DNA of 64,000 nt from Pyrinomonadaceae bacterium (lineage in GTDB: Bacteria; Acidobacteriota; Blastocatellia; Pyrinomonadales; Pyrinomonadaceae), in contig JBPCIP010000069.1 of the NCBI GenBank assembly GCA_051006195.1, positions 5,480 to 69,479 on the forward strand, read 5' to 3'. The notes below the pieces were generated by a model, which was not told the DNA's origin, ran no database searches, and saw nothing but the letters and a program-made list of their open reading frames with translations. Below are positions 1,032-54,501 of this stretch, one piece after another (position 1 is the stretch's first letter; every line of letters begins with the position of its first letter). Both the position numbers and the translations under genes were made by a program.

Positions 1032-1070
1032 TGTGCTCCCCACCCATCGCTCCCCTCTCAGAACCATTGC

Positions 1071-1102
1071 TCTCTTCTTTGCGCCTTTGCGCCTTTGCGT
1101 GA
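1071..1102. repeat. Left arm of a 32-bp imperfect inverted repeat flanking the GxxExxY cassette
   Basis: tctcttctttgcgcctttgcgcctttgcgtga. It matches the reverse complement of 1498..1529 at about 29/32 positions by hand alignment. The arm is a tandem octamer (cctttgcg). Confidence 0.8.
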
Positions 1103-1107
1103 AAATT

Positions 1108-1487: not shown

Positions 1488-1497
1488 GGGGTTTATC

Positions 1498-1529
1498 TCA
1501 CGCAAAGGCGCAAAGGGGCAAAGAAGCAA
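1498..1529. repeat. Right arm of the inverted repeat flanking the GxxExxY cassette
   Basis: tcacgcaaaggcgcaaaggggcaaagaagcaaagg, the reverse complement of the 1071..1102 arm. It abuts the stop of the decarboxylase gene at 1533. Confidence 0.8.
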
Positions 1530-1532
1530 AGG

Positions 1533-3068
1533 CTAAATGAGGTGTGCGGCTTGTTCCTGTAAGAGGTTCCATGCGCGCCCGACATGTGCTTCGGTCGTGC
1601 GGATGTTGCCGACGGCGAGGCGCAGGGTGAATTGATCGCGCAGGCGCGTGTGCGAGATGAAGAGCGAGCCGGTGGCGTTGACGTTGCTCATGAGTTGTTC
1701 GTTGAGCGCGTCGAGGCGCGCGGCGCGGTGAGTGTCCGTCTCTCCTGCTTGAGCGGGACAAGCGCGGAAGCAGACGACGCTTAAGGGGACGGGCGCGAGC
1801 AGTTCCCAACCGGGCGCGGCTTCAACCCATGAGGCGAAGAGTTGCGCGAGACGACAGTGTTCGCGGATGCGCGCGGCGAGTCCATCGTGTCCGAAGTAGC
1901 GGAGGATCATCCAGAGTTTGAGGGCGCGAAAACGGCGACCGAGTTGGACGCCGTACTCGGAACCGTTCTGCACTCCGATTGACTCCGCTTCGGGTGCGCG
2001 CAGATATTCGGGGATGAGCGAGAAGGCGCGGTGCAACACGTCCATGCGGCGGCAGTAGAGGACGGAGAGGTCGAAGGGCGTAAAGAGCCACTTGTGCGGG
2101 TTCGTGGTCAACGAATCGGCGCGCTCGCACCCGGCGAGGACGCGCGGGCGCAGTTCGGGCACGACGCCGGCAGAACCAGCATAAGCGGCATCGACGTGCA
2201 GCCAGAGTTTGTGTCGCTCGCAGATGTCGGCGATAGCAGGGACGGGGTCGATGCTGGTCGTCGAGGTCGTGCCGACGGTGGCAACGACGCAGAAGGGAAG
2301 GAAGCCGTTGCGCCGGTCGTCTTCGATGGCGTGTGCGAGCGCGGCGGCGTCCATGCGAAATTCGTCGTCGCAAGGAATTTTGCGAAGCGAGCGTTGGCCG
2401 AGGCCGAGCGCGATGACCGCTTTGTCGATGGATGAGTGCGACTGTTCGGAGGCGTAGACGCGCAGCAGGGGCAGGTCGTCGCGCCCGCTCATGCCCTGTT
2501 CGCGGATGTCGAGATGCAAGTGTTCGCGCGCGGCGGCGATGGCGTGCAGGCTGGAGACGGAAGCCGTGTCGTAGATAATGCCGGCGAACTCTGCGGGCAG
2601 GCCGATCATTTGTCGGAGCCACGAGAGGGTCACTTCTTCGAGTTCGGTGGCGGCGGGCGACGTGCGCCAGAGCAGGGCTTTGACATCGAAGGCCGCGCCG
2701 AGGAGTTCGCCGAAGATGCCGGGAGCAGAGGTGGAAGTGGCGAAATAGGCGAAAAAGGAGGGATGACTCCAGTGCGTCAGCGCAGGCACGATCAAACGAT
2801 CCACGTCGGCGAGAATCGCATCCATCGACTCACCTTCGGCGGGCGGCGCGGCGGGCAGTTGCTCGATAAGCGTGCGCGGCTTGACCTGCGCGAGCACGGG
2901 GCGCGCTTCGATGTCGGTGAAATAATCGCTGATCCAGTCGATGAGCGCGTGGCCGTAGCGACGAAAATCCTCCGCGCTCATGTCGCCTGTGGGCGGCGCG
3001 ATGCCTTGCAATTCGCTCTCACTTTGCTTCATGCCAGGCATTGTAACGGGGAACGGTGCGGGCGTCAT
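1533..3068 (-). CDS. PLP-dependent group II amino-acid decarboxylase (aromatic-L-amino-acid/tyrosine decarboxylase-like)
   Basis: 511-aa ORF. It has HVDAAYAGSA and the SLTTNPHKWLF PLP-lysine motif typical of DDC-type decarboxylases. The exact start is uncertain (Met at 3068, 3041 or 3032). Confidence 0.85.
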   Translation of the reverse strand: MTPAPFPVTMPGMKQSESELQGIAPPTGDMSAEDFRRYGHALIDWISDYFTDIEARPVLAQVKPRTLIEQLPAAPPAEGESMDAILADVDRLIVPALTHWSHPSFFAYFATSTSAPGIFGELLGAAFDVKALLWRTSPAATELEEVTLSWLRQMIGLPAEFAGIIYDTASVSSLHAIAAAREHLHLDIREQGMSGRDDLPLLRVYASEQSHSSIDKAVIALGLGQRSLRKIPCDDEFRMDAAALAHAIEDDRRNGFLPFCVVATVGTTSTTSIDPVPAIADICERHKLWLHVDAAYAGSAGVVPELRPRVLAGCERADSLTTNPHKWLFTPFDLSVLYCRRMDVLHRAFSLIPEYLRAPEAESIGVQNGSEYGVQLGRRFRALKLWMILRYFGHDGLAARIREHCRLAQLFASWVEAAPGWELLAPVPLSVVCFRACPAQAGETDTHRAARLDALNEQLMSNVNATGSLFISHTRLRDQFTLRLAVGNIRTTEAHVGRAWNLLQEQAAHLI

Positions 3069-3101
3069 TGAGACGTGCGATAAAATTTTTTCACCCGAAG
3101 A

Positions 3102-4043
3102 TTACGCCGCAAGTTCATCAAGCGGAGGAAACTTGTGCTGTTTGCGTCCGGGCGGGCCGTCGAATTTCTTGGAGGTCTTATAGAGTTCAAAATGGCCGTC
3201 GGCGGCGGCGGGCGCGCAGCGCGTGCGCAAGGCTTGCATCTCTGCGGCGGGCATGGGCGCGAAATCGCGCGCGATGCGTAAGTTTTGCCGCAAGACTTTG
3301 AGCGAGTCGATGCCGGAGACGGTGGTGGCGACGGGGAGACTCATGGCATAACGCAGTGCTTCCGTGGCCGTCACGGCTCGTCGTTTGATGGGGTCGCCTT
3401 CGCCGCCCATGCTCTTCATGCCGAGCGGGGCGATGCCGCGTCGCATCACCTCGGGCAAAACCTGTTGCTCGAAACTGCGGAAGGTGGCGTCGAAACAGTT
3501 TAAGGGAAACTGGCAGGTGTCGAACGGGTAATCGTGCGCCAGCATCTTGAGATGGATCGCCGGGTCTTTGTGCCCGGTGAAGCCGACGAAGCGTACTTTG
3601 CCTTCGCGCCGCGCCTGTTCGAGCGCTTCGATCACGCCGCCAGCGGCAAAGTGCAAATCGGGATCATTATCGTGGACTACTTCGTGTACTTGCCAGAGGT
3701 CGAGGTGATCCGTGCGCAGGCGTTTGAGCGATTCTTCCAGTTGGCGCATGGCGACTTTACGGTCGCGCCCGTGCGTGCAGACTTTCGACATGAGAAAGAC
3801 CTGATGGCGGCGATTCTCTAAAGCCTCGCCCATCAACTCTTCGCTCCGCCCGTCGTGATATTCCCATGCATTGTCCATGAAAGTGACGCCCGCATCAATC
3901 GCTTCGTGGACGATTTGTAAACATTCGCGCTTGCCCTTCACCGACCCCAGATGAGAACCGCCGAGCGCGAGCGCCGAGACTTCGACGCCCGTGCGCCCCA
4001 ACATCCTGCGCGGAATCTCACCGGAAATTTTGCTGTGACTCAT
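3102..4043 (-). CDS. Aldo/keto reductase family oxidoreductase
   Basis: MSHSKISGEIPRRMLGRTGVEVSALALGGSHLG... has a typical AKR N-terminus and length. GGAG lies 6 nt upstream of ATG 4043, so the longer ORF start at 4112 is unlikely. Confidence 0.85.
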   Translation of the reverse strand: MSHSKISGEIPRRMLGRTGVEVSALALGGSHLGSVKGKRECLQIVHEAIDAGVTFMDNAWEYHDGRSEELMGEALENRRHQVFLMSKVCTHGRDRKVAMRQLEESLKRLRTDHLDLWQVHEVVHDNDPDLHFAAGGVIEALEQARREGKVRFVGFTGHKDPAIHLKMLAHDYPFDTCQFPLNCFDATFRSFEQQVLPEVMRRGIAPLGMKSMGGEGDPIKRRAVTATEALRYAMSLPVATTVSGIDSLKVLRQNLRIARDFAPMPAAEMQALRTRCAPAAADGHFELYKTSKKFDGPPGRKQHKFPPLDELAA

Positions 4044-4158
4044 GACACACTCCTTACACAAATATCGGCTATGAGTTGATTGAATGCTGAACGGTGGGAA
4101 GCAGTATGCCATAGCTAAAGCGTGGCGGAAAGAACATAAGTCGAGCGGCGGTAAAACT

Positions 4159-4193
4159 AAAACGGGAGGCTCGCTATGTGAGCCTCCCGTTTT
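4159..4193 (-). terminator. Intrinsic terminator hairpin downstream of the stress-protein gene
   Basis: aaaacgggaggctc-gctatgt-gagcctcccgtttt: a perfect 14-bp stem flanked by A/T runs on both sides, so it could act in both directions. Confidence 0.75.
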
Positions 4194-4217
4194 GCTTTAC
4201 GTCAAAGTCCGTCGTGT

Positions 4218-4889
4218 TTAGCGATAGACGTTTTCGCCGCGATGCGTTTTGAATTCGTTCTCGAAGTAAGTAGCGTCTTCGTCGCTGCGCGCGTTGACGC
4301 CCATCACGATGCCGCCTTCCTTGAGGCCGCTCTCATATGCTTTCGCACGATCTTCAGGGATGCCTGAGCCGATCAGCGCGCCGATGAGTCCGCCGGTCGC
4401 GCCGCCAGCGCCCGCGCCCGCGAGCGCGGCCAGCAACGGCCCCGCCACGATGAGACCCAGGCCCGGCAAAACAACGGATGTGCCGATGGCCGCAATGGCT
4501 CCGAGCACCGCGCCTGTCGTGCCGCCGATGGCCGAACCCACGCCCGCGCCTTCGAGCGCCTTGCTGCCGAGTTCCGAGTCAGGCGCGTCATCCCCAAAAT
4601 GGGTTTTGCGCGTCTCGTCCGACATCATTAAATTGACATCATCGTTGCTGTAGCCGCGCGTCGATAGCGAACCGTAAGCGCGCTCTGCGCTTTCACGATC
4701 GCGGAAGAGTCCCGTCACCATACGGTTTGAACCTTGCCGCGCCGCGCCCGTCGCACTTTCCGCCGCGCCTTCCGCGCGCAACGAACTGTTTCCAGTCACC
4801 GTGCCGGTGGCTTCCTTGATGTCGCCTTTGGCGCGTTGACCGAAGGCTGAAACTTCTTCGCCGATACTGTCTCTTTTGTTATCGTCCAT
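4218..4889 (-). CDS. CsbD-like / general-stress protein with a glycine-zipper membrane segment
   Basis: N-terminal KGDIKEATGTVTGNSSLRAEG (CsbD-like). Middle part FRDRESAERAYGSLSTRGYSNDDV (YflT/GSP17M-like). Then a Gly/Ala-rich hydrophobic stretch. Confidence 0.6.
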   Translation of the reverse strand: MDDNKRDSIGEEVSAFGQRAKGDIKEATGTVTGNSSLRAEGAAESATGAARQGSNRMVTGLFRDRESAERAYGSLSTRGYSNDDVNLMMSDETRKTHFGDDAPDSELGSKALEGAGVGSAIGGTTGAVLGAIAAIGTSVVLPGLGLIVAGPLLAALAGAGAGGATGGLIGALIGSGIPEDRAKAYESGLKEGGIVMGVNARSDEDATYFENEFKTHRGENVYR

Positions 4890-5276
4890 TTTATGTCCCC
4901 TCTCGAAATTTGTGTGATGGACTATGATGAGTCCGCAGTTAGGTTAATGCCTGTACCTGGTTGAAAAGCGCCGAATAAACCTGAGCACGTCCGGCAGCAA
5001 TAATGTGCAGAACTTTTATTTATTCAAACAGTGTCGCACGAACTATTCACGTATGGCTGAAACACTGTGTACGATTTCGCATCCTGAAAATTGCTGCCAA
5101 CGGTGAAGTGGCAAAGATTGTGCCGCACTATAGTAAAGGTGCGTCGGACGGGAAGCGATCCGCACCCCCTCAACCTCTATCGGATTAAATTTTTTCTGTC
5201 AGTCATTGCCCTACGAGCTATGCTATAAGACACGCGTCGAAAAATCTTGTGAGGTCGCCAGGCGGGATTTTATTCC

Positions 5277-5304
5277 TCGACATAGCGCGCTAAATCGGTA
5301 TAAT
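5277..5304 (+). promoter_or_regulatory. Candidate sigma70-type promoter for the NSS transporter operon
   Basis: TCGACA (5277-5282), 16 nt, TATAAT (5299-5304) in a GC-poor intergenic region. This implies a ~235-nt leader. Pattern match only. Confidence 0.3.
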
Positions 5305-5545
5305 GCGCGAGTTATTCCTGCATTCATCATCGGCGATTTTTAAGATTTAGATAAGGACTCGACGCACAACGGAACGGACGATCAGTTACGTGCGCCGCAT
5401 CTTGCCCGCGCCTTGTTGTCGTGTCCGCTTTCGACTTTCCCGGCGTGTTGTGGCTGTCACTGTTTTTTGCAGTTGCCGCCAGTGAAATGTCGCCAGTTCG
5501 CCGGATGATTCAAGGCTATACTATGATGAGGAGCGCCCTTTTGTT

Positions 5546-7267
5546 ATGGCAAACAAAGATGACAACGGCATAGACCTAAACCCGATCCCCGATTTCCCTT
5601 ACGATAAGGATGTCGTTGACAGGGAAGGTTGGGCTTCGCAACTCGGCCTCGTGCTGGCGATGGCCGGGAACGCCGTCGGGTTGGGCAACTTCCTGCGCTT
5701 TCCGGCGCTCGCGGCGCGAAACGGAGGCGGGACTTTCATGATCCCGTACTTCATCGCGTTCCTGCTGCTCGGCATCCCGCTCATGTGGATCGAGTGGGGC
5801 ATCGGGCGCTACGGCGGCAAGTACGGCTATTCCACTTCGCCCGGTATGTTCGAGAAGATGTGGGCCAACCCGCTCGCGAAATACCTCGGCGCGCTCGGCG
5901 TCTTCATCCCGCTCGCCTTCGTCATCTTCTACACCTACATTGAATCGTGGACGCTCGGCTACGCCGTCCTCTCGTTCGCCGGACAGATGCCGAGCATCGC
6001 GGGGCAGAGTCCCGATCAGGCGTTCAAGACGATGGGCGATTATCTGGGTGCGTATCAGGGCACGAACAACGGGCTGGCGTGGTCGGGCAGCATCGTCGGC
6101 ATGATCTTCTTCGCCATCACGCTCTTCGTCAACATCTTCGTCATCTCGAAGGGCATCGCGGGCGGCATCGAGCGCATGGCGAAGATCGGCATGCCGCTCT
6201 TGATCCTCTTCGCGATCATCGTCGGCATCCGCGTCCTCTCGTTGCCCGGCGCGATGGGCGGCGTGGCCTTCGTCTGGAACCCGGACTTCTCGCGCATCAC
6301 GGACGGCGCGGTCTGGCTCGCCGCCGCCGGGCAAATCTTCTTCACGCTCTCGCTCGGCACGGGTTCGATCCAGACCTTTGCGAGTTATCTGAAAGAGACC
6401 GACGACATCGTGCTGACGGGCTTGGCGACTTCCTCGATGAACGAATTTTGCGAAGTCATCCTCGGCGGCTCGATTGCGATCCCGGCGGCGACGGCCTTCT
6501 ACGGCGCGGGCGCGGCCACGGCCATTGCCAACTCCGGCACGTTCAACCTCGGCTTCCAGACGATGCCCGCCGTCTTCTCCGGTCTCCCCGGCGGCGCGCT
6601 CTTCGGCGGCATCTGGTTCACGCTGCTGTTCTTCGCCGGCATCACCTCATCGCTCGCGCTGGCGCAGCCCGCGATGGCCTTCCTGCAAGACGAGTTGAGG
6701 ATGACTCGGCAGCGGGCGGCAATGGTCGTCGGCGCGATCATCTTCGTTGCCGTGCTGCCGATCATCATGTTCCTGCAATACGGCTACCTCGACGAGTTCG
6801 ACTTCTGGTCGGGCGAGTTCCTGCTGCTCGTCTTCGCGCTGATCGAGACGATCCTTTTCTTCTGGGTGTTCGGCGGGCACAAGGCTTGGGATGAGATCAA
6901 GAAGGGGCAGCAGATTCCGCTCCCGCGCTTCTTCTACCCGATCATGAAGTACGTCGTGCCGATCTTCATCAGCCTGATTCTGTTCAAGGGTATCATTGAC
7001 TCGCTCGTCCCGCGCCTGCTCTCGCAGAAGTGGGTTGACCTGCCCGGCTGGAGTAAGGCGACGGCCTCTTTCGGCGACCGTTTCATGTACGAGTTCGGTC
7101 TCCACGGGCGCGAGTTGGTGGCGAATGCGGCCATCGCTGAGCAGTCCGGCTATCGCTGGGCGGCGCGCATCGAGATGATCATCCTTTGCGCCGTCGTGAT
7201 GGCGCTCACCGGGTACGCCTGGAACAAATACAGACGCTCAGAGAGAGGAGGGGCACACGCACAATGA
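5546..7267 (+). CDS. Neurotransmitter:sodium symporter (NSS/SNF, LeuT-like) family transporter
   Basis: GNAVGLGNFLRFPALAARNGGGTFMIPYFIAFLLLGIPLMWIEWGIGRYGG is the NSS signature region. The protein has multiple TM segments. Confidence 0.9.
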   Translation: MANKDDNGIDLNPIPDFPYDKDVVDREGWASQLGLVLAMAGNAVGLGNFLRFPALAARNGGGTFMIPYFIAFLLLGIPLMWIEWGIGRYGGKYGYSTSPGMFEKMWANPLAKYLGALGVFIPLAFVIFYTYIESWTLGYAVLSFAGQMPSIAGQSPDQAFKTMGDYLGAYQGTNNGLAWSGSIVGMIFFAITLFVNIFVISKGIAGGIERMAKIGMPLLILFAIIVGIRVLSLPGAMGGVAFVWNPDFSRITDGAVWLAAAGQIFFTLSLGTGSIQTFASYLKETDDIVLTGLATSSMNEFCEVILGGSIAIPAATAFYGAGAATAIANSGTFNLGFQTMPAVFSGLPGGALFGGIWFTLLFFAGITSSLALAQPAMAFLQDELRMTRQRAAMVVGAIIFVAVLPIIMFLQYGYLDEFDFWSGEFLLLVFALIETILFFWVFGGHKAWDEIKKGQQIPLPRFFYPIMKYVVPIFISLILFKGIIDSLVPRLLSQKWVDLPGWSKATASFGDRFMYEFGLHGRELVANAAIAEQSGYRWAARIEMIILCAVVMALTGYAWNKYRRSERGGAHAQ

Positions 7268-7443
7268 CTCTAATGATCGGAATGATTTTAATATCGTTGC
7301 AGGCCACCGGCGTGACGACAGGCCGGGCGGCGGAACCTGTGCAAATGACCACCGGCGGCTGGGTCTTTATGATCGGCGCGTGGACGTTTATCCTGACGCT
7401 GGTCTATTACACCTTCTCCAAAGTCCTGCGCGGCGGTAAGTAA
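7264..7443 (+). CDS. Small membrane protein, MetS-like NSS transporter small subunit
   Basis: 59 aa, hydrophobic C-terminal half (GGWVFMIGAWTFILTLVYYTF). Its ATG overlaps the transporter stop (ATGA), which suggests translational coupling. Confidence 0.55.
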   Translation: MTLMIGMILISLQATGVTTGRAAEPVQMTTGGWVFMIGAWTFILTLVYYTFSKVLRGGK

Positions 7444-7469
7444 ACGACGCATGAGCGGCGGCGTCTTTT

Positions 7470-7512
7470 AATTTCGGTTCGGGCGATGGTTGACCTTGCC
7501 CGAACCGAAATT
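7470..7512. repeat. Hairpin (14-bp perfect stem) after the transporter operon
   Basis: aatttcggttcggg (7470-7483) pairs with cccgaaccgaaatt (7499-7512), 15-nt loop. It covers the annotated start of ORF 7486. Confidence 0.7.
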
Positions 7513-7527
7513 CTATTTGCGCCGTCC

Positions 7528-8175
7528 ATGCACATAATTCAACCGCCCACGATTAAATTGACTGGAGCGAACAGTTTCAATATGCCGAGCGCCAAGATCA
7601 AGATCGCCAGACAGACGGGTTCCGGCCAACTCCCCGCCGACGCCAGCCGCCTGCTCGAACTCATCATCGCTGAGATCGAGTCGCCCGTAGACACGCAGAA
7701 ACTGCTCGACAAATTCCCCCCGACCGACAGTTGCCACGAAGAGTCGCTCCGCTTCCTGAAGGCCAAAGACCGCGCGCAACGCCGCGCCGACTTCGTCGCG
7801 AACGAGGCTCTGTGGTGGCGCAAGTACGGCTGGTTCATGGCGCGCATCGTCGGGTTGTTCGGGCTGCTCGTCTTCGCCTTCGCCATGTCTGTGCGCGGCG
7901 CGGGCGTGGATTTCATCACCTTCGCCCTGCTCGGCGCTGCCGGGTACTATTTGCTGCTGATGACGGTCTCGAACATTCGCTACCGCGAAAAAAACAAGAA
8001 GCGGCGCAAACTGCTCGAACGCGAGCAGCAACAGTACCAGCGCGCCATCTTAGCGGTGGCCGCTTCACTCCTGAAAAAATTTCAAGTTGACCCGTCGCTC
8101 TACCCCATCGCCAAGCCAAGAAGCGGTGCGGGACTCATCGAGCGCGAAGACGGCTATTTCATTCCGGTTGAATGA
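7528..8175 (+). CDS. Hypothetical membrane protein (two predicted TM helices)
   Basis: ORF 7486..8175. The first codons lie inside the hairpin, so Met at 7528 or 7582 is the more likely start. No recognisable motif. Confidence 0.5.
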   Translation: MHIIQPPTIKLTGANSFNMPSAKIKIARQTGSGQLPADASRLLELIIAEIESPVDTQKLLDKFPPTDSCHEESLRFLKAKDRAQRRADFVANEALWWRKYGWFMARIVGLFGLLVFAFAMSVRGAGVDFITFALLGAAGYYLLLMTVSNIRYREKNKKRRKLLEREQQQYQRAILAVAASLLKKFQVDPSLYPIAKPRSGAGLIEREDGYFIPVE

Positions 8176-8187
8176 TTCGGTGATTCG

Positions 8188-9600
8188 ATGAGACGGAAAA
8201 TTATTTACAGTTTGCTCCTGTTAGCGACGCTCTCGCTGGCGACACGGACGATTTTCGCGAGCGGTGAAGCGGGAGAAGCGGGCGGCGCAGGTCATGGTCT
8301 CAACCCGTTCGTGCTCATTGGCGTCGCGCTCGTTTTGCTGATCGCTAAACTCGGCGGCGAGTTGTTCGAGCGTTTCGGTCAGCCAGCCGTGCTCGGCGAG
8401 TTGATCGGCGGGATGATCGTCGGCAACCTTGTGTTATTTGGCGTTACGGCCATCGAACCGCTGAAAACTGATGTGGTCATCGGCGCGCTCGCGGAGATCG
8501 GCGTCATCCTGCTGCTGTTTGAGGTGGGGCTGGAATCGAATCTCGGCGAGATGCTCGAAGTCGGCTGGTCGTCGCTGCTGGTGGCGACAGCAGGCGTGAT
8601 TGCGCCCTTCTTTCTCGGCTGGGGCGTGGCCGCTTATTTCATTCCTGACGAAGCGCAACTCGGCCATATCTTCATCGGCGCGACGCTCTGTGCCACATCG
8701 GTCGGCATCACGGCGCGCGTGCTGAAGGATATGGGCAAACTCAATACGCGCGTCGCCCGCATCGTGCTCGGCGCGGCGGTGATTGACGACGTGCTCGGCC
8801 TGATTATCCTCGCCGTCGTGCAGGGCGCGATTCAGGCGACCGCCACGGGCACTTCGCTTTCACTCCTGAGCGTCGGCATCATCACGCTCAAGGCCGTCGG
8901 CTTTCTCGTCGTCGCGCTCCTCGTCGGGCGATTCCTCGTGCCGTATCTCTTTCAAGGCGCGGGCAAACTCGAAGGGCGCGGCGTGTTGCTGGCCTTAGCG
9001 GTTGCGCTCTGTTTCGTGTTGTCGTGGGCGGCAGCCGGGATAGGTCTGGCCGCCATCGTCGGCGCGTTCGCCGCCGGGTTGTTGCTGGAAGAAGCGCACA
9101 TCGAGCGCATGCCCGGTCGCACGAAACATGATTTACATGAACTGCTCACGCCGCTGACCACCATCCTCGTCCCCATCTTCTTCGTCCTGATGGGTCTCAA
9201 GGTTGACCTCAGCACCTTCGCACGCCTCGACATTCTCGGCTTCGCGGCGGCGCTGACGCTGGTCGCGATCATCAGTAAACAGGTCTGCTCGCTGGCGGTC
9301 ATTGATCGCGGCATTAATCGTCTCGCCGTCGGCCTCGGCATGATCCCGCGCGGCGAAGTCGGCCTCATCTTCGCCGGTATCGGCGCGACCCTCATGCTCC
9401 CGAACGCGCAGGGCATCAATGAACCCGTCATCGGCAGCGCCACCTTCGCCGCCGTCGTCATCATGGTCATCATCACCACGCTCGTCACCCCGCCGCTGCT
9501 CAAGTGGTCGCTCGCGCGCACGCCTTCCGCACCCGACGAACCGCTCCCCGACGCCGAACGAGTGTTGGCCGACGAAGCCGCCGAACGCACGACTCGATAG
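8188..9600 (+). CDS. Cation:proton antiporter (CPA2 / Kef-type Na+/H+ exchanger family)
   Basis: 470 aa, about 12 TM segments, typical sodium/hydrogen exchanger family sequence (LGELIGGMIVGN..., GLIFAGIG). Confidence 0.8.
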   Translation: MRRKIIYSLLLLATLSLATRTIFASGEAGEAGGAGHGLNPFVLIGVALVLLIAKLGGELFERFGQPAVLGELIGGMIVGNLVLFGVTAIEPLKTDVVIGALAEIGVILLLFEVGLESNLGEMLEVGWSSLLVATAGVIAPFFLGWGVAAYFIPDEAQLGHIFIGATLCATSVGITARVLKDMGKLNTRVARIVLGAAVIDDVLGLIILAVVQGAIQATATGTSLSLLSVGIITLKAVGFLVVALLVGRFLVPYLFQGAGKLEGRGVLLALAVALCFVLSWAAAGIGLAAIVGAFAAGLLLEEAHIERMPGRTKHDLHELLTPLTTILVPIFFVLMGLKVDLSTFARLDILGFAAALTLVAIISKQVCSLAVIDRGINRLAVGLGMIPRGEVGLIFAGIGATLMLPNAQGINEPVIGSATFAAVVIMVIITTLVTPPLLKWSLARTPSAPDEPLPDAERVLADEAAERTTR

Positions 9601-28966: not shown

Positions 28967-31024
28967 ATGCCAATCGAAACGATTTTCCCACTTGCAGGTG
29001 CATGGCTCTGGAGCAATTACGGAAAGAGCCTTGCCGGTAAAGTCTTTGATGCAGGCAAGGAAAAATGGGACGAGTCGAAGTGGGAAACTGCCGCCAGAGC
29101 CTATCGCGCAAAAATCATCAAGCAATACGACTCGATGCAAATTATGGGCATGGTCAAGCCTGTGCCGCTCGATGACATTTTCACCGAGGCTTACATGCTG
29201 GATAAGCCCACCGCCTACGGGCGGTTCGACATCGAAGACTTGAAACAGAAGTCCGCCGCAGACCCGGATGCGCCGCCGCACGCGGAACGAATCAACGGAT
29301 TGAAACTGGTCAGGGATACAGGCAACCTCTTTATCCTGGGGAAGCCGGGCGCGGGTAAAACAACTTTCCTCAAATATATCGCCCTCAAAGCCGCCGAGCA
29401 GTTACTAGATAAAGTCCCGATCTTCATTTCGCTCAAACAATGGGCTGATTCCGGCGTAGAGTTGTTGCCCTTCATCGCAGGGCGTTTCGACATTTTCGAC
29501 TTTCCCGTAGCGCAGCCGTTTGTCGAGGAACTATTGAAATCGGGCGGCGCGATTGTGTTGTTCGACGGCCTTGATGAAGTCAATCAGGAGGACGGGCAAA
29601 GGGACAAGCAAACGCGCGCGATGAACAATTTCATCGAGAAGTATGACCGGACGCAATGCCTCATCACCTGCCGCATCGCCGCCAGCGATTATTCCTTCGA
29701 GCCATTCGCTTACGTCGAGATCGCCGACTTCACCGAAGCGCAGATTCACACGTTTGTCCGCAACTGGTTTCGTAAAGGGGGGAAGAAAGACGAAGAAACC
29801 AGCGCTAAATTTCTGTCTGAGTTTGCGAGGGACGACAACAAAGGCTTGCGCGATCTGGCGCGCACGCCGCTGCTTTTGACGTTGCTGTGTCTGGCCTTCA
29901 ACGAGACGCTGACCATTCCGCCGCGACGGGTTGAAATTTACGAGGAAGCGTTGGACGCACTGTTGAAGAAATGGGACTCGTCACGAAGGATTAAGCGCGA
30001 CGAAGTTTATCGCAAGCTGTCGCTGGGTCATAAAGAGAACATGCTGGCGAGTATCGCGGCGGAGACGTTTGAACGAAACGAATATTTCATCCCGCAGGCG
30101 GAACTGGAAAGACGCATCACGGCTTACGTCAGGAACGTGCCGCCGCACGACGCGAACGAAGCGACCGACGGAGAAGCGATTCTCAAAGCGATTGAGGCGC
30201 AACACGGCATTTTCGTAGAGCGCGCCCGCGCGGTGTATTCCTTTTCGCACCTGACTTTTCAGGAATACTTTACGGCGAAGTATATTGTTGCTAATGCGTC
30301 CAAAGGCACGTTGACGAATCTGGTCAAAGAGCATTGCGCGGACGGGCGTTGGCGTGAAGTGTTCCTGTTGACGACAAGTTTGTTGCCGGATGCCAGCCAT
30401 TTTATGACGGCCTTCCGGCGCAGCGTGGATAATTTTCTCGAAGAGGATGAAAAGCTGCGGGAATTGTTGGCTTGGGCGGATAACAAATCGGCTTCAATTC
30501 AAGCTGATCCCTGGTTAGTGAGACCGTACTATTTGTACATAGAGATTTACTATCGAAGCCGAAACCGCGCCCTCGCCCTCGACCGCGCCCTCGCCCTCGA
30601 CCTCGCCCTCGACCGCGCCCTCGCCCTCGACCTCGCCCTCGACCTCGCCCTCGCCCGCGCCCTCGACCTCGCCCGCGCCCTCGACCTCGCCCGCGACCTC
30701 GCCCTCGCCCGCGCCCGCGACTTGGGATTGAACGAGTTTGCAAAAGAATTAGCCGCGCTCTCGTTACCAACCGACACCTCTCCTACCGCAGAGTGGCAGG
30801 TGTTCGCGGATAAATTGCGAGCCTTGATGATCAAGCACAGGGACATCGGGCATGATTGGAATTTAACCGATCCACAGGAAGCGCGATTGGCTGATTACCT
30901 CAACGCCACGCGCTTGCTGCAAGATTGTTTGGAGTTGGCTGTGATCTCGCCGGATGAAAAGAAGGCGATGCTAAACAGTTTGTATTTGCCACCGGCTCAG
31001 GCAGAGGATGGGCAAAATGCCTGA
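28967..31024 (+). CDS. NACHT-domain STAND NTPase with a C-terminal [A/D][L/R] dipeptide-repeat tract
   Basis: Walker A ILGKPGAGKTTFLKYIAL, Walker B IVLFDGLDEV, and downstream TPLLLTLLCLAF and FSHLTFQEYFTAKYI typical of NACHT modules. A short ~35-aa hydrophobic/amphipathic N-terminus precedes the NTPase. Confidence 0.85.
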   Translation: MPIETIFPLAGAWLWSNYGKSLAGKVFDAGKEKWDESKWETAARAYRAKIIKQYDSMQIMGMVKPVPLDDIFTEAYMLDKPTAYGRFDIEDLKQKSAADPDAPPHAERINGLKLVRDTGNLFILGKPGAGKTTFLKYIALKAAEQLLDKVPIFISLKQWADSGVELLPFIAGRFDIFDFPVAQPFVEELLKSGGAIVLFDGLDEVNQEDGQRDKQTRAMNNFIEKYDRTQCLITCRIAASDYSFEPFAYVEIADFTEAQIHTFVRNWFRKGGKKDEETSAKFLSEFARDDNKGLRDLARTPLLLTLLCLAFNETLTIPPRRVEIYEEALDALLKKWDSSRRIKRDEVYRKLSLGHKENMLASIAAETFERNEYFIPQAELERRITAYVRNVPPHDANEATDGEAILKAIEAQHGIFVERARAVYSFSHLTFQEYFTAKYIVANASKGTLTNLVKEHCADGRWREVFLLTTSLLPDASHFMTAFRRSVDNFLEEDEKLRELLAWADNKSASIQADPWLVRPYYLYIEIYYRSRNRALALDRALALDLALDRALALDLALDLALARALDLARALDLARDLALARARDLGLNEFAKELAALSLPTDTSPTAEWQVFADKLRALMIKHRDIGHDWNLTDPQEARLADYLNATRLLQDCLELAVISPDEKKAMLNSLYLPPAQAEDGQNA
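30565..30726 (+). repeat. Hexanucleotide (G[AC]CC[TG]C) tandem repeat inside the NACHT gene
   Basis: About 27 units encode RALALDRALALDLALDRALALDLALDLALARALDLARALDLARDLALARARDL. All six frames are open here, which produces the artefactual GRGRGR/ARARSR minus-strand ORFs. Confidence 0.9.
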
Positions 31025-48030: not shown

Positions 48031-48095
48031 AAGTGATAAGTGATGAGTAAGGACGAAAGCATTGTCTTTGACGCAGCACTCATCACTCATCACTT
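48031..48095. repeat. Heptamer-based palindrome (GTGATnA type) in a divergent intergenic region
   Basis: aagtgataagtgatgagt (48031-48048) pairs with actcatcactcatcactt (48078-48095), 1 mismatch. It lies between two divergent gene starts, so it terminates neither gene. Confidence 0.85.
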
Positions 48096-49154: not shown

Positions 49155-50330
49155 ATGTCAGATTTTTACTCATTGGCAATCAATCTTATGACGGATATTC
49201 AACCAATTCTCGACCGCACGCTCGGCGGCGAGCGACTGACGGCGGAAGATTGCGCCGCGTTGCTAGAGTCGGATGATTTCGTTCGCATCGGCCTCGCCGC
49301 CGACGAGATGCGGAAGCGCCGGCATCCCACGAACGTCGTCACCTACATCATCGACCGCAACATCAATTACACGAACGTCTGCAACGTCGTCTGCACTTTC
49401 TGCGCCTTCTACCGTCGCCCCGGCAAACCCGATACCTACGTCCGCACCGTCGCCGAGATTTGCGAGAAGATCGATGAGACCATCGCGCTCGGCGGCACGG
49501 GCATCCTGATGCAGGGCGGCCTCCATCCCGACTTCGGCCTCGAATGGTATGAAGACCTTCTGCGCACGCTCCACGCGAAGTACCCGCAGATGCAACTGCA
49601 CAGCTTTTCGCCGCCGGAGATTCACAACCTTCATCTCATCACGAAACTTTCTTACGAAGAGATTTTGGAGCGTTTGAAAGACGCCGGACTGTCGAGCCTG
49701 CCCGGCGGCGGCGGGGAGATTCTCGATGACGAAGTGCGCAAACGCGTCTCGACGAAATGCACGACCGACGAATGGCTCGCCGTGATGCGCGCCGTGCATC
49801 GCGTGGGCCTGCGCTCGACGGCGACGATGATGTTCGGCATCGGCGACAACCTCACGCACCGCGTCCGCCACCTCCAGCGCATCCGTGATCTGCAAGACGA
49901 AACCGGGGGCTTCACGGCCTTCATCCCGTGGACGTTCCAACGCGAGAACACCGCGCTCGGTCGCCGCATCAAAGACGAACCGACCGGCATCGACTATCTC
50001 AAGATGCTCGCCGTCTCGCGCCTCTTCCTCGACAACGTCGAAAACTTTCAATCCTCCTGGCTTACGCAGGGGCTTCGGCTCGGACAAGTCGCCCTTCGCT
50101 TCGGCGCGAACGACATGGGTTCCATCATGATCGAAGAGAACGTCGTCTCCGCCGCCGGCGCGCACAACGAAGCCGATGAGCGCATGCTCCGCTACCTCAT
50201 CCGCACCGCCGGCTTCCGCCCGCAGCAACGCGACATTCTCTACAACCACATCAACCGCGACGCATCAACCGACGCGGACGCGAGCGATTCCGCGACCCTG
50301 CGCGAACTGAGCGTTGCATTCGCTGATTGA
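49155..50330 (+). CDS. Radical SAM menaquinone biosynthesis enzyme (MqnC/MqnE family)
   Basis: IIDRNINYTNVCNVVCTFCAFYR (CxxxCxxC), adjacent to mqnA. MqnC and MqnE cannot be told apart by eye. Confidence 0.85.
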   Translation: MSDFYSLAINLMTDIQPILDRTLGGERLTAEDCAALLESDDFVRIGLAADEMRKRRHPTNVVTYIIDRNINYTNVCNVVCTFCAFYRRPGKPDTYVRTVAEICEKIDETIALGGTGILMQGGLHPDFGLEWYEDLLRTLHAKYPQMQLHSFSPPEIHNLHLITKLSYEEILERLKDAGLSSLPGGGGEILDDEVRKRVSTKCTTDEWLAVMRAVHRVGLRSTATMMFGIGDNLTHRVRHLQRIRDLQDETGGFTAFIPWTFQRENTALGRRIKDEPTGIDYLKMLAVSRLFLDNVENFQSSWLTQGLRLGQVALRFGANDMGSIMIEENVVSAAGAHNEADERMLRYLIRTAGFRPQQRDILYNHINRDASTDADASDSATLRELSVAFAD

Positions 50331-50334
50331 GCGA
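50152..50334 (+). repeat. Direct repeat copy 1 (functional 3' end of the mqnC/E gene)
   Basis: Aligns by hand with 51064..51247: about 10 substitutions plus one 1-nt indel over ~183 bp. Confidence 0.9.
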
Positions 50335-50426
50335 TTCAAGCTGCGAAGAAAAAGAGGTGTAACGGGTTTCGGCAGTGTCGCCGGAAAGGAGTTGTCTGAT
50401 GTGCTGTATAGCTGCAAATGCTCATC

Positions 50427-50993
50427 TTACTTGTCGAAAATCTGTTGAGCTATACATTTGAAGCCGGGCAAAATTGGCGACGTGATTTCGTCCTCACCCG
50501 TCAGCGTAGCCACGAGAGTTAAGGTGCGCTCATTCAAGCGATATATCTCCAGAGCGCGCGATTCAGGATTAGCGATCCAGTATTCCTTGACTCCGAACTT
50601 CCCGTAAACCTGACGCTTCACTTCGCGATCACGCCGCGCATTTTCTTTGCCCGGCGAGACGATTTCGATAGCCAGTGCGGGGGCTTCGGTGATGCGTTCC
50701 CCGGAGCCAATGTCGCCCACCTGCTGATTGGTGATGAAAACAAGGTCGGGAATAGCGCTATTAAAGTTATCGAAGATGACCCCCGGCGTGAGCAGTATCT
50801 CACCCACCGCCTGTTGATCCAGATATGATCTCAAAATGGCATGAAGATTTCCTAAGACACGCTGGCGTGAGAGACTGGGCGCGCGTGACACAATGAGTTC
50901 TCCTTCAAAGAGTTCATAACGGTTTTCATCTTCCGGCATCGCCTCAAGATCGGCCACCGTCAACAGCGGCTCAACTTTAGCTGACATATACAC
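50427..50993 (-). CDS. Uma2-family (DUF820) PD-(D/E)XK endonuclease
   Basis: IPDLVFI..., ALAIEIVSPGKENARRDREVKRQVYGKFGVKEYWIANP is the typical Uma2 core. GC is lower than in the flanks. Confidence 0.85.
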   Translation of the reverse strand: MYMSAKVEPLLTVADLEAMPEDENRYELFEGELIVSRAPSLSRQRVLGNLHAILRSYLDQQAVGEILLTPGVIFDNFNSAIPDLVFITNQQVGDIGSGERITEAPALAIEIVSPGKENARRDREVKRQVYGKFGVKEYWIANPESRALEIYRLNERTLTLVATLTGEDEITSPILPGFKCIAQQIFDK

Positions 50994-51063
50994 CTCCTAA
51001 TTCGCTCTCCACGCGACGAGAACATAACACGCCAGCTAGAGAAGCCTCAACGCTTTGCTACAA

Positions 51064-51247
51064 CCGCCGGCGCGCACAACGAAGCCGACGAGCGCATGCT
51101 CCGCTACCTCATCCGCACCGCCGGCTTCCGCCCGCAGCAACGCGACATCCTCTACAACCACGTCAACCGCGACGCATCAACCGCAGGCGGACGCGAGCGA
51201 TTCCGCGACCCTGCGCGAGTTGAGCGTCGCTTTTGCGGATTGAGCGA
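51064..51247 (+). pseudogene. Direct repeat copy 2: displaced, frameshifted duplicate of the mqnC/E 3' end
   Basis: It encodes ...AGAHNEADERMLRYLIRTAGFRPQQRDILYNHVNRDAST, then a 1-nt insertion, then ADASDSATLRELSVAFAD* in the next frame (split across ORFs 51096.. and 51055..). Confidence 0.85.
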
Positions 51248-51354
51248 GAAGGGAGAGACCCGGAAACTAACTCCTGCGAATTGCCGGCCCACCAAGATCG
51301 TAGACTGGGATGACAACTTTCGTGTCGCCGGTTCCCGCGCCATCGCTTTCCATT

Positions 51355-51579
51355 TTAGCCTGTAATGGCGGCCACGATGATCATCGCGATGCCGATAATC
51401 ACAGAGGCGATGACGATGGCGAGGGCGACGTTTTGATCTTCTTCGATTTCCTTGCGAAGAGAGAAAGGCGTGGCTTTTCCCATGATGAAGAAGGCGAGTC
51501 CGAACAGTGCCAGACCGATAATCGTGAAAATAGCGACCTGCAAAATTGATTGGGTCAAGGGTATCGTCTGAAAAAGCAT
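51355..51579 (-). CDS. DUF350 domain membrane protein
   Basis: 74 aa, two TM helices, ...FSLRKEIEEDQNVALAIVIASVIIGIAMII is typical of DUF350. Confidence 0.7.
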   Translation of the reverse strand: MLFQTIPLTQSILQVAIFTIIGLALFGLAFFIMGKATPFSLRKEIEEDQNVALAIVIASVIIGIAMIIVAAITG

Positions 51580-51600
51580 AGTTATCTCCGGCAGTCTATT

Positions 51601-51787
51601 CTACTTGGTAAGCCATTTACTCAATTGCCCTTCAGCCTCTTCTTGGGTGAGTGTTGCTTGAGTGTCGGCGATCTCCAACCGTGTTGTACTTTTTCGATTA
51701 CATAGAGATGGTATTGAATATCTTCCAGTGGCAATCATCAGGCAGCTTATGAAGTAAAGCCTCAACTTCTTCCTTTACGGTGCTCAT
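51601..51787 (-). pseudogene. Small antitoxin-like / addiction-module-component-like gene, disrupted by two frameshifts
   Basis: Manual translation gives MSTVKEEVEALLHKLPDDC in frame 1, LEDIQYHLYVIEKVQHG in frame 2 and LEIADTQATLTQEEAEGQLSKWLTK* in frame 3. Joined, they resemble a common ~60-aa family. Confidence 0.45.
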
Positions 51788-51881
51788 AACCTCGCTCCTT
51801 CATCTGAGAATTACGCCTCAATTTGCAGTCAATTTAACACACAAATGATTCCAAAGAAGCGTGGCTTACTATGCCCGCGCG

Positions 51882-54263
51882 TCAACGCCATTTGAAGATG
51901 CTGACGATATTGGAGAAGTCGTCGCGCCAGACCGGGCGGTCGAGGCGGCCTTCGAGTTTACGCCAGTTCGCGTTGTTGGCGAGTGTTCCCGTGTCTTCGG
52001 GGCGGCGTGCCATGACGACCCATTGAGAGGGTTCTTTGCCGCTCGTCCCGCTGGGGGCAGTGTCGTCGAAGACGAGGGAGGTTAAGTTTCGGCTGCGGGC
52101 TAAGTCGGCGACGACGGGGTGGAGGTCGAGGCTGCGGTTGGAGATGTGGAAGACGAGAAGACCGACGGGGGCGAGTTTGGAGAGATAGAGGTCGAGGGCT
52201 TCGAGGGTCATGAGGTGCGTGGGGATGGCGTCGGAACTGAAGGCGTCGAGGACGATGAGGTCGTAGTGCGCGGCGGGAGCATTGCGGAGTTGCAGGCGCG
52301 CGTCGCCGAGGGAGATACGGACGGGAGCGGCGGCGCAGTAAGAAAGATAAGTGAAATATGACGGGTCGCGCGCTATCTGAACGACGGCAGGATTGATTTC
52401 GTAGAACGTCCAGCTTTGACCTGCGCGGGCGTAGGCGGCGGTTGCGCCGGTGCCGAGGCCGACGATGGCGACGTTGCCGTTGCGGGCAGGGCGTTCGTTG
52501 AAAGCGGCGAAGACCTGACCGAGCGGCCCGGTGCGATGATAATAAGAGAGCGGGTCGCACTGGCGGTCGAGGGCGAGCGATTGTCGCCCGTGGACGGTCG
52601 TGCCGTGGTAGAGCCAATGCATGTCGCTCATGGGGTCGCGCGTGACGCGCAGGAGGCCGAAGAAGTTGCGTTCGGCGATGAGCGTCTCGGTGTTGAGCCG
52701 TGCGTGAAAACTGCTGCCGAGCATGACCGCGCCAAGCGCGAGGGCGAAACGCGAGGGGCGACGACGGAATAGATAGGCGAGGATGAGAGGCACACCCGTC
52801 ACGAGGGCGAGACTTTGCACCCACTCGATGCGAAAGCGATTGATGATGAGCGCGAGCAGGATCGTGAGTAACGCGAGGCAAGCCGGAAAACCGATGTCGA
52901 GCCAACGCTCGCGCGGTGTCGTTGTGCTCGCGTCGTTTTGCGGGCGCGGCAAGAGCAGGCAGGCGAGCAGGATGACGAGCGGATATTCGAGCGCGGAGTT
53001 GAACAGGGCGGGCGCGACGAGCGCGTTGCAGATGCCGCCGAGCACGCCGCCGACGGACATCAGCAGATAAAACTCCGCGAGATGCCGGACGGCGGGACGC
53101 TCCTCCGCCAACTGCCCGTGGCACAGCATCGCCGCGACGAAGAAAAAGAAGAGATGGAGAAAAGCGAGGAACCACGCCGGCTGCGTCGCGCCCGACAGAT
53201 ACGCGAGGACGAAGACGAGCGCAACGCCCGGCAGGATGCGCGACAGGGCGCGCGGCGGGAAAATTTGCCTGCGGGCGAAAGCGAAGACCAGCGTGAGCAG
53301 ATAGAGCGAGAGCGGGATGACCCAGAGCAGGGGGAGCGAAGCGATGTCGGTTGAGATGTAGGTCGTCACGCCGAGCATCAGACTCGACGGCACGAAGGCG
53401 AGCGCGACCCAGCGCAGGCGACGCCGCCATGAAAGCGTTCCGGTTTGTGTTGCATCAGGTTGAGCGGCTTGTGATTCTTCGTCTTCACCGTGCGGCTCTA
53501 TCCAGTCAACGACGCCTTCAGAGGGCAGGCTCGTCGCTCGTCGCTTCGTTCGTCGAAGCAATCCGAGGGCGCAGGCCGCGATGAGCAGCACGAGCAGGGC
53601 ATAGACGAATGACCAGAGACGGCTCTGCCCGCTGAGCGCAATGCCGGGTTCGAGCAGAAGCGGGTAACTCAAGAGCGCGAGGAGACTCCCCGCGTTGCTC
53701 GCCGCGTAGAGAAAATAGGGGTCGTGCGAAGATCGTTGGCGCGTCTCCGCGAACCACTTTTGGAGCAGCGGGCTGTTGGTCGAGACGGCGAAGAAGGGCA
53801 GCCCCACCGTCGTCAACAAACTCTCTAATAACCACAGCGACGGGTTGCCTTCGCCCGGCACGGAGCTGATCGTTGCCTCGGAAATGAGGATGGGAAAGCT
53901 GAGCGCGGCAAGGAGGAGCAGGAGCAGTTGCGCGATGATCTGTTGTCGCAGATTCAGCCACTTCGAGACGGCGAGCGCGTAGGCGTAACCCGCGAGCAGC
54001 ATCGCCTGAAAAAAGAGCATGCAAGTGTTCCACACGGCGGGCGTGCCGCCGAGGAGCGGCAAGAGCATCTTTGCCACCATCGGCTGCACCCAGAACAGCA
54101 GCGACGCGCTGATGAATAACGTTGCGGCGAACAAGAGCGTCAACCCGCTTGAGCGTTCCGGCATGCGTAATGGTGGGTGTGCTACTGCGGCCACTGCATT
54201 CGTTGACGCACCCACCGATGCGGGCGCAGTTGCGCGTAGAGGCCGACCTGCCAATCCATCCAT
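51882..54263 (-). CDS. Fused polytopic membrane domain / spermidine-synthase-like methyltransferase-fold protein
   Basis: About 500 aa of TM helices, then VAIVGLGTGATAAY and DLIVLDAFSSDAIPTHL (spermidine synthase family motifs). The start may be internal (MPERSSG). Confidence 0.8.
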   Translation of the reverse strand: MDGLAGRPLRATAPASVGASTNAVAAVAHPPLRMPERSSGLTLLFAATLFISASLLFWVQPMVAKMLLPLLGGTPAVWNTCMLFFQAMLLAGYAYALAVSKWLNLRQQIIAQLLLLLLAALSFPILISEATISSVPGEGNPSLWLLESLLTTVGLPFFAVSTNSPLLQKWFAETRQRSSHDPYFLYAASNAGSLLALLSYPLLLEPGIALSGQSRLWSFVYALLVLLIAACALGLLRRTKRRATSLPSEGVVDWIEPHGEDEESQAAQPDATQTGTLSWRRRLRWVALAFVPSSLMLGVTTYISTDIASLPLLWVIPLSLYLLTLVFAFARRQIFPPRALSRILPGVALVFVLAYLSGATQPAWFLAFLHLFFFFVAAMLCHGQLAEERPAVRHLAEFYLLMSVGGVLGGICNALVAPALFNSALEYPLVILLACLLLPRPQNDASTTTPRERWLDIGFPACLALLTILLALIINRFRIEWVQSLALVTGVPLILAYLFRRRPSRFALALGAVMLGSSFHARLNTETLIAERNFFGLLRVTRDPMSDMHWLYHGTTVHGRQSLALDRQCDPLSYYHRTGPLGQVFAAFNERPARNGNVAIVGLGTGATAAYARAGQSWTFYEINPAVVQIARDPSYFTYLSYCAAAPVRISLGDARLQLRNAPAAHYDLIVLDAFSSDAIPTHLMTLEALDLYLSKLAPVGLLVFHISNRSLDLHPVVADLARSRNLTSLVFDDTAPSGTSGKEPSQWVVMARRPEDTGTLANNANWRKLEGRLDRPVWRDDFSNIVSIFKWR

Positions 54264-54501
54264 CCGAACCGCCTGTATCGCATCATTCGCTCCTTAGAGA
54301 GTTGGCCGCAACAGTCAACAGTACGATGCCCGCAGCGTTGTGCGTCGTTCAAGGTAGAGAAGGCTTTCTTGAGGGCAAGCATAACACTGCTTCGCGCGCC
54401 GGGTGAATGAGCGCAGCATTATGCTGCTTCTGATTGTCTTACCGTAAACTGACTGACTACTAAATCGAAACTTACGACATTTGGACACGCAGAAAAGGCT
54501 T

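Follow-up and report, generated by a model that had tools for sequence, protein, structure and literature searches.

Can a gene for a small predicted nuclease, lying between two copies of its neighbour's 3' end, have brought itself there, or was it carried? The locus that raises this question belongs to a 64,000-nucleotide stretch (64 kb, the window in what follows) of a metagenome-assembled genome (MAG) from the Pyrinomonadaceae (Acidobacteriota), in which a gene of the Uma2/DUF820 family is bracketed by two diverged copies of the end of mqnC. The initial annotation saw in this a cassette that had arrived with a replacement 3' end for its target gene, and possibly direct evidence that Uma2 genes are mobile or homing-like. 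The reading favoured here, with a probability of roughly 0.6, is that the mqnC-linked Uma2 gene is an old relic of an integron-type cassette that reached its site in a one-off duplication-insertion and has been reshuffled by homologous recombination since, with the nuclease as cargo. The locus is made up as follows (nt, nucleotides; aa, amino acids; RBS, ribosome-binding site).

49155..50330, plus strand: mqnC, intact, encoding cyclic dehypoxanthinyl futalosine synthase (TIGR03699; Radical_SAM and CofH_C domains)
50152..50334, plus strand: repeat copy 1, the functional last 179 nt of mqnC with the stop codon, plus 4 nt
50335..50426, no strand: spacer 1, 92 nt, between the convergent mqnC and Uma2 genes
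50427..50987, minus strand: Uma2/DUF820 gene of the PD-(D/E)XK family, 186 aa, intact (PF05685, E = 3.5e-32)
50988..51063, minus strand: spacer 2, 76 nt, with the Uma2 RBS and 5' region, then the apparent last ~20 nt (L' to R' box) of an attC site
51064..51247, plus strand: repeat copy 2, a 5'-truncated mqnC 3' end with the start codon absent and a +1 insertion near 51184; a gene fragment
51248..51881, minus strand: lineage-specific filler of the gap from mqnC to the 793-aa gene, including a DUF350 gene at 51355-51579 (PF03994, E = 6e-14)
51882..54263, minus strand: gene for a 793-aa membrane protein that matches no Pfam family; in relatives it is conserved as the right-hand limit of the variable gap

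Below, W stands for the window, K for locus L081 and M for loci L162 and L165, with 1 for the cassette-proximal mqnC end and 2 for the distal one. The host gene had been left as mqnC/E. It is indeed a radical-SAM mqn gene, but MqnE is excluded: the gene scores 486 bits against TIGR03699 (cutoff 428) and stays under the cutoff of the MqnE model, which makes it mqnC. The public record probably places its start at 49188 (MTDIQ...), and the protein P0121 is 100% identical to the window's MqnC across 380 aa. The two copies form a direct repeat at the coordinates first reported (183 nt in W1, 184 nt in W2, 94% identity), which is the sole long repeat of the window. Uma2 is, as had been stated, the only gene between them, on the opposite strand and in DNA of lower G+C content (0.50-0.55, against about 0.61-0.65 in mqnC). 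Both copies terminate in ...DSATLRELSVAFAD followed by a stop codon; this shared ending had been described correctly, while the limit of the repeat had to be moved, as it extends 4 nt beyond the stop codon (TGAGCGA).

The copies themselves argue against a local origin. A computed alignment bears out the earlier count by hand: 10 substitutions separate W1 from W2, together with one nucleotide inserted into copy 2 near 51184. Of the substitutions eight are synonymous, one replaces I by V and one is adjacent to the indel. Their distribution over the three codon positions is 2/0/8, and Nei-Gojobori estimates of synonymous (dS) and nonsynonymous (dN) divergence are 0.225 and 0.015 (dN/dS 0.07). When substitutions were placed at random 100,000 times with an unchanged transition/transversion mix, eight or more synonymous changes arose by chance with P = 0.0008, and a random distribution over codon positions is thereby rejected. 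If copy 1 had accepted synonymous changes only and copy 2 had evolved neutrally, about 39% of the differences would be expected to be synonymous (our own estimate from site counts), and a neutral copy 2 at a dS of 0.225 should have gathered roughly a dozen nonsynonymous changes, where 2 are seen. Because of this synonymous excess and nonsynonymous deficit, neutral divergence in situ is rejected for the copies in W. A recent tandem or target-site duplication, after which the non-functional copy diverged neutrally, would suit the direct-repeat geometry and the fact that W1 and W2 are mutually closest among the available alleles. It is nevertheless very improbable, given this test and given that the structure is common to lineages at dS values of about 0.4-0.6 and hence not recent; the initial annotation was right to set it aside.

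Nearly all the states that separate W1 from W2 are polymorphisms also present in functional alleles. The W1 tail (...NHINRD..TDADASDS, the TDADA type) is that of the functional alleles P0128 and P0130, and the W2 tail is of the V...STAG type of the L162/L164 clade (V...TAG tail). To judge from its sequence, W2 resembles the end of an mqnC allele that was functional in another lineage and was made a fragment only recently. Translation of copy 2 yields small open reading frames (ORFs) of 89 aa in W and 48 aa in K and a broken one in M; given this lack of conservation, the presence of a gene within copy 2 was rejected.

The same architecture recurs outside the window. L081 (Logan, SRR13378641; Uma2 at 90% aa) is a contig of 1031 nt that holds the last 56 nt of mqnC, Uma2 and a full second mqnC end, and in L162 (ENA) and L165 (JGI), with Uma2 at about 80% aa, the whole structure is spanned by contigs of 60 kb and 3.9 kb. 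A misjoin of strain variants of the mqnC end might be suspected, the source being a MAG and a contig of the same strain from a JGI assembly (L082) ending 19 nt ahead of the repeat. Four independent assemblies from different samples share the same order and junction, however, and therefore the structure is not an assembly artefact; the two copies in L162/L165 (76-82% identity) are moreover too divergent for graph tangles. An artefact is scarcely credible. Spacer 2 meets copy 2 at an identical junction in W, L081, L162 and L165 (...CAACGCTTTGCTAC(N2)/CCGCC...), and with one junction in all four filled lineages the structure must have arisen once. Spacer 1 is conserved in L081 and collinear in L162/L165. 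Its proximal ~45 nt in the latter two match the native flank of the empty-site locus L164 (L162 spacer against L164 flank: score 52, against 18.5 +/- 3.4 in shuffles, 0/500), and what follows copy 1 in W, K and M is a flank of the type seen after mqnC in this empty relative.

How old is the insert? Between W and M, synonymous divergence is lowest in the mqnC body (dS 0.39-0.45), followed by the 760/793-aa gene (0.48-0.53), mqnA (0.57-0.61) and Uma2 (0.62-0.67), and the dN/dS of Uma2 is about 0.2 (window against the orthologs in L162, L165 and L081). By these rates Uma2 has diverged alongside its neighbours and has been kept by purifying selection, with no signature of recent horizontal spread. 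The single junction and a Uma2 dS that matches the flanks show that the cassette did not come in recently as a unit, and the Uma2-mqnC arrangement is older than the split of at least three Pyrinomonadaceae lineages.

Relatives with an uninterrupted mqnC end define the empty site. In L163/L164 mqnC runs directly to the 760-aa gene, without Uma2; in L166/L167 the gap holds other small genes, also without Uma2; and no Uma2 homolog or second mqnC tail lies downstream of mqnC in 80 species-level loci (L001-L080). Filled and empty forms of the one site occur among close relatives (L162 filled, L164 empty). The mqnC-body dS is 0.094 from empty L164 to filled L162 and 0.151 from filled L162 to filled L165, which places the empty L164 within the filled clade. 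The content of the gap differs by lineage: the window has a DUF350 gene, L166 a 158-aa ORF and L167 a methyltransferase gene with He_PIG. The filler in the window (51248-51881) has no tblastn or blastn match in the 80 species-level loci, and alignments of W to L162-L165 skip it. A short dispersed sequence, CTAAATCGAAACTTACGAnATTnGGACA, is found in the window at 54458-54490, upstream of the 793-aa gene, in L081 (reverse complement) at 1002-1029, ~35 nt past copy 2, and downstream of mqnC in L006 (7215-7287) and L042 (2964-3005).

Copy 2 has had different histories in the filled lineages. M2 differs from M1 by 17 nonsynonymous changes and two 1-nt insertions and has lost its last ~12 nt; it is a decayed, truncated pseudogene, with the neutral pattern expected of an old fragment left undisturbed. 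K2 has an intact frame, its differences from functional alleles are mostly synonymous (dN/dS 0.06-0.14), and it groups with L005/L010, outside the W+M clade. It also runs on into a flank of the L011/L014 type that includes the R' box (motif GCGTTAAACC/TCATTTCC, 0/500 shuffles). K1 is of the W/M type: it matches W1/W2 at 52-53 of 56 positions and K2 at only 47 of 57, and its last ~33 nt are, in a by-eye comparison, identical to M1 of L165. Taken as sequence comparisons, these results support the view that W and K each hold two alleles, both shaped as functional genes but in separate lineages. The two-lineage origin proposed in the initial annotation is thus upheld for W and K by the dN/dS values, the standing polymorphisms and the native flank of K2. 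The accompanying claim, that a replacement end displaced the native one, survives in part: the pattern of K1 and K2 is as predicted, but the cassette did not arrive recently as a unit.

Which end in W is then the foreign one? The cassette may have been resident in the W lineage throughout, copy 2 being overwritten by conversion from copy 1 and the 3' part of copy 1 being imported afterwards, which would make copy 1 foreign. The last 180 nt of W1 have 12-16 mismatches to the L166/L167 clade and 21-24 to the L162-L165 clade, the reverse of the W mqnC body (129-140 and 90-100, respectively), and W1 has four unique derived synonymous states where W2 keeps more widespread ones; both points would fit such a history. 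It needs two events, however, where a crossover in copy 2 needs one, and the first 100 nt of W2 are also closer to the L166/L167 clade. In K, moreover, the foreign flank is on the distal copy and not on the proximal one. A mosaic breakpoint in W mqnC at the repeat start (~position 965) was tried and rejected, as M-like and N-like sites are patchy gene-wide and the switch of ancestry is not significant. A resident cassette with a foreign copy 1 is unlikely on balance, though it deserves to be kept in mind.

The origin of the cassette is best seen from relatives of its gene at other loci. In L083-L087 a ~100-nt repeat adjoins the Uma2 orthologs (73-77% aa) on both sides, with the order R'' (RYCTAAC), spacer, L'' (GAACCGG), variable centre, L' (CCGGTTAA), spacer and R' (GTTAGRY), and the consensus fold of these repeats has compensatory pairs. 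By their motifs and predicted fold they are attC sites. Taxon-specific attC sites and chromosomal integrons are documented in Acidobacteria (Ghaly et al. 2021, PMC8352920). L085 carries eight such sites, all on the plus strand, from 37 to 8163 and one ORF apart, with the order attC-Uma2-attC twice; its array also encloses what a by-eye reading of the translations suggests is a toxin-antitoxin-like ORF pair. L086 has one attC-Uma2-attC unit (61-912), and L087 has five attC sites, one of them inverted. These relatives of Uma2 thus belong to cassette arrays with a common orientation and one ORF per attC, and methyltransferase and DUF5615 ORFs accompany Uma2 there.

The window gene retains part of this context. 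A profile of the cassette 5' region, built solely from the upstream regions of the cassette-borne Uma2 genes in L083-L087, has a single match in the window, at 51069-50992 on the minus strand (E = 0.0013), and the match is collinear from the L' box (CGG/TT) via the R' box GCG/TTGAGG to the RBS, which is AGGAGG. A cassette 5' boundary at the R' box (G/TT) of a preceding attC is accordingly found in the window. Because the match runs from L' box to RBS, spacer 2 can be read as a cassette 5' boundary with the last ~20 nt of the preceding attC. It meets copy 2 at the L' box (reverse complement ...GCGCCGGCGG/TTGTAGCAAAGCG/TTGAGGCTTC...). At this junction (reverse complement ...GTGCGCGCCGGCGG/TTGTAGC...) mqnC resembles, by eye, a GC-rich attC arm such as GTGCGCCCGG/TTAATTC, which would be consistent with microhomology-mediated illegitimate joining.

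In other lineages attC sites lie next to mqnC itself. Those of L011 (7165-7263, minus strand, E = 1e-6) and L166 (5494-5578, minus strand, E = 5e-4) are both 12-15 nt past the mqnC stop codon, and further sites in the gap between mqnC and the 760-aa gene are found in L007 (6453-6561, minus strand) and, as a weak match, in L010 (7182-7285, minus strand). The attC matches in 820 kb of mqnC loci all fall downstream of mqnC (3/3), and the gap is therefore regarded as a small cassette-bearing variable region in the family. Spacer 1 of the window may be a degraded attC 3' arm with its R' box (reverse complement ...CCGAAACCCGTTACACC); aligned with the attC and flank of L011 it scores 29, against 18.7 +/- 3.4 in shuffles (5/500, marginal). 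Far from the cassette, between ORFs 7486-8175 and 8188-9600, the 5' half of the attC profile has an isolated hit at 8146-8177 of the window (minus strand; AATCATTCAACCGGAATGAAATAGC, nhmmer E = 0.014), which may be an attC relic elsewhere in the genome.

Uma2 itself matches PF05685 over its full length (residues 14-179 on profile positions 2-168 of 172). Its closest PDB relatives, 9y1l, 6okh and 3ot2, are all deposited as uncharacterised, and it matches the PADLOC candidate defence family PDC-S03 (E about 1e-32 to 5e-32). Integron cassettes often carry defence or toxin-antitoxin genes, and by this analogy a defence role for Uma2 is plausible. The literature treats the family, which has expanded in cyanobacteria and Thermus, as predicted PD-(D/E)XK nucleases and reports no biochemical assay (PMC3424549, PMC1274311, PMC9403480).

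Did the nuclease drive its own insertion? A self-mobile or homing-like cassette that entered mqnC with its own replacement 3' end, driven by Uma2 or by an unseen recombinase, would fit the presence/absence polymorphism of L162 and L164, the different alleles at the proximal and distal mqnC ends in W and K, and a gene that is intact and under selection in all filled loci. One shared junction, however, means one founding event, and a Uma2 dS that is the same as or slightly above that of the flanking genes speaks against recent spread. No integrase was found, and the 729 bp between the copies hold Uma2 alone, as the initial annotation had noted. The filled allele keeps every empty-site sequence, so that a homing target would survive. 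Nor are other Uma2 genes found between duplicated gene ends: the window has no further Uma2 gene, and about 75 of 80 metagenome Uma2 loci lack mqnC and a bracketing gene-end repeat. Three candidates for a bracketing repeat among these 80 were explained otherwise, as paralogous ribbon-helix-helix (RHH) antitoxin genes (L118), FtsX-type permease N-termini (L093) and attC sites (L085). Uma2 orthologs at 50-77% aa occupy at least four separate contexts, each conserved over several contigs, or attC arrays, and no gene-end duplication was found in their other contexts. With no destroyed target and nothing that ties the nuclease to movement, the homing-like mobility suggested at the outset is improbable.

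Other Uma2 lineages were seen in passing. A second one (63-72% aa) is found in L106 (2309-4042) and also in L088, L117 and L123; in L106 a CofH/MqnE-like radical-SAM gene, with 36% identity to MqnC, immediately precedes it on the same strand. Uma2 thus stands a second time beside a radical-SAM gene of the futalosine type, perhaps by chance. The part of the L106 upstream flank nearest to Uma2 recurs in L088, and the downstream flank is common to all four. More distant relatives (about 34-39% aa) form tandem arrays of 2-3 paralogs with a period of 590-640 nt (L143 1127-2680; L156 277-1403; L159 3717-5528).

The relic-cassette reading can be laid out in steps. The cassette would sit at the end of a small attC-bearing variable region that reaches from mqnC to the conserved gene for the 760-793-aa membrane protein. 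One ancient illegitimate event would have joined the attC L' box upstream of Uma2 to an internal, similarly GC-rich site of mqnC, with a direct duplication of the last ~180 nt of mqnC as the outcome; by-eye comparison suggests that the duplicated unit may also have taken in a short flank and an attC R' box. This arrangement predates the split of the lineages, with Uma2 under purifying selection throughout, and the functionless copy 2 decays, the pattern seen in L162/L165. The duplication supplies mqnC homology on both sides of the cassette. Recombination between a filled and an empty allele, with one crossover anywhere in mqnC and the right-hand one within copy 2, would then yield an mqnC with the donor's end, Uma2, and a copy 2 that is mostly the other parent's functional end followed by its native flank. 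The route may be a double crossover on linear DNA or the looping-out of a 912-bp circle and its Campbell re-integration, which would give the same product. A crossover within copy 2 would account for a near-pristine W2 with a single fresh frameshift and for a K2 that is an intact foreign allele, and either route would explain an old Uma2 with one shared junction beside a copy 2 that is young in W and K and decayed in M. In this scheme Uma2 is a passenger, perhaps with a role in defence, and does not cause the movement; the mobility seen for this Uma2 clade is of the known integron kind, and the spread of the mqnC-linked form needs homologous recombination only.

Several points weigh against this scheme. 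The reconstruction of the founding event depends on a single junction, at which the microhomology amounts to about 8-12 nt. The covariance model, run with filters off, finds no intact attC in the window (best E = 2.4, spurious), and neither this model nor an nhmmer downstream profile finds a 3' attC of the cassette's own in 50335-50426, a site that the orthologs in L084-L087 do carry; an attC relic downstream of Uma2 is marginally supported, by the shuffled alignment given above and by by-eye comparison. A search of the window and the other loci with an IntI1 probe and for the HxLRH motif detected no integron integrase; as the array flanks covered are short, one may lie further away. No recombinase domain is present in the eight L083 and two L087 ORFs scanned; the L083-L087 arrays may be integrase-less clusters. 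The mqnC body and the genomic background of K lie outside its 1031-nt contig, and the ancestry switch near the repeat start of W mqnC lacks statistical security. Import of the cassette into W and import of the flank into W would leave sequences that are not distinguishable.

A more active version of the recombinational cycle would be a recombinase-free self-targeting unit. Recombination between the two mqnC ends would release the 912-bp circle and leave mqnC whole, and the circle or linear DNA would re-enter the mqnC of any related genome by way of RecA and displace the native end there, stimulated by Uma2 as it cuts empty alleles. This is a long shot. If true, it would be the first demonstrated biological role of a Uma2 protein, and a homing-like cycle in which a gene-end duplication takes the place of an intron or intein.

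The remainder of the window is quickly described. It has no tRNA or tmRNA genes that could serve as integration targets, and a scan of 50100-51900 for sigma-70 promoters and intrinsic terminators returned no sites. No record was returned for the exact protein sequences of P0001 or of MqnC and Uma2 from the window, the latter two each tried from two start codons. An 18-nt inverted repeat (48031-48048 and 48078-48095, 94% complementary, 29 nt between the arms) is intergenic between a cyclase gene and mqnA, and a tandem repeat with the 18-nt unit CCGCGCCCTCGACCTCGC (a period of 12 or 30 can also be read) spans 30565-30721 with 8.7 copies and 89% matches.

The locus gives no proof that Uma2/DUF820 genes are self-mobile. 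It does put one Uma2 clade in Acidobacterial integron arrays, which explain the multi-copy, patchy distribution of these genes by a known mechanism and fit the listing of PDC-S03 as a candidate defence family. It is also a natural example of how a gene-end duplication can preserve an essential gene beside an insertion. Recombination between filled and empty alleles can repeatedly refresh a pseudogene fragment and thereby mimic purifying selection, a caution for dN/dS analyses of gene fragments.

Among known systems, free-standing homing endonuclease genes are exemplified by the phage seg and mob genes, and I-Ssp6803I is a homing enzyme of the PD-(D/E)XK type. The mqnC locus is like these in having a small nuclease gene present or absent at one intergenic site, with flanking markers that seem to have been co-converted. 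It is unlike them in that no target is destroyed: copy 1 is continuous with the mqnC body, and both copy-flank junctions persist, so that the insertion disrupts no recognition site of its own. There is a single insertion and no excess similarity of the nuclease between lineages, its dS of 0.62-0.67 against 0.39-0.61 in the flanking genes making it neither younger than the flanks nor discordant with them, and cleavage by Uma2 is a prediction.

Genomic islands at the 3' ends of tRNA, tmRNA and protein genes, which use tyrosine recombinases and attP/attB sites, provide a second 3' end that keeps the target intact and leave a displaced partial copy at the far end, as is seen here. The window, in contrast, has no integrase, and its 729 bp between the copies encode no site-specific recombinase. 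Its repeat is 183 nt long and diverged rather than a short identical core, the insert holds one gene, and there is one founding junction that is shared by four filled lineages, unlike recurrent independent integration at the same att core.

Cassettes of sedentary chromosomal integrons and of clusters of attC sites lacking integron-integrases (CALIN) offer a closer parallel for the gene itself. Close Uma2 orthologs are single-ORF units bounded by attC in same-strand arrays, the window copy retains a cassette 5' boundary (the L'-R' remnant of attC and the conserved 5' region), and attC abuts mqnC in other lineages. The window copy differs in having no recognisable attC of its own and no integrase found nearby, and a 183-nt duplication of an adjacent gene is not a product of integron recombination, which is why it needs a separate illegitimate event.

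For the duplication, the nearest parallel is Campbell-type integration, by a single crossover, of a circle with a 3'-terminal piece of a gene, as in the duplications made with suicide vectors, which are excised again by recombination between the direct repeats. The mqnC unit would differ from these as a natural 912-bp element that has no replication or transfer functions, and its circle is hypothetical; a double crossover with linear DNA gives an identical product. What the two have in common is the order of intact gene, insert and 5'-truncated gene end, and copies that can be chimeras of donor and recipient, as in W and K.

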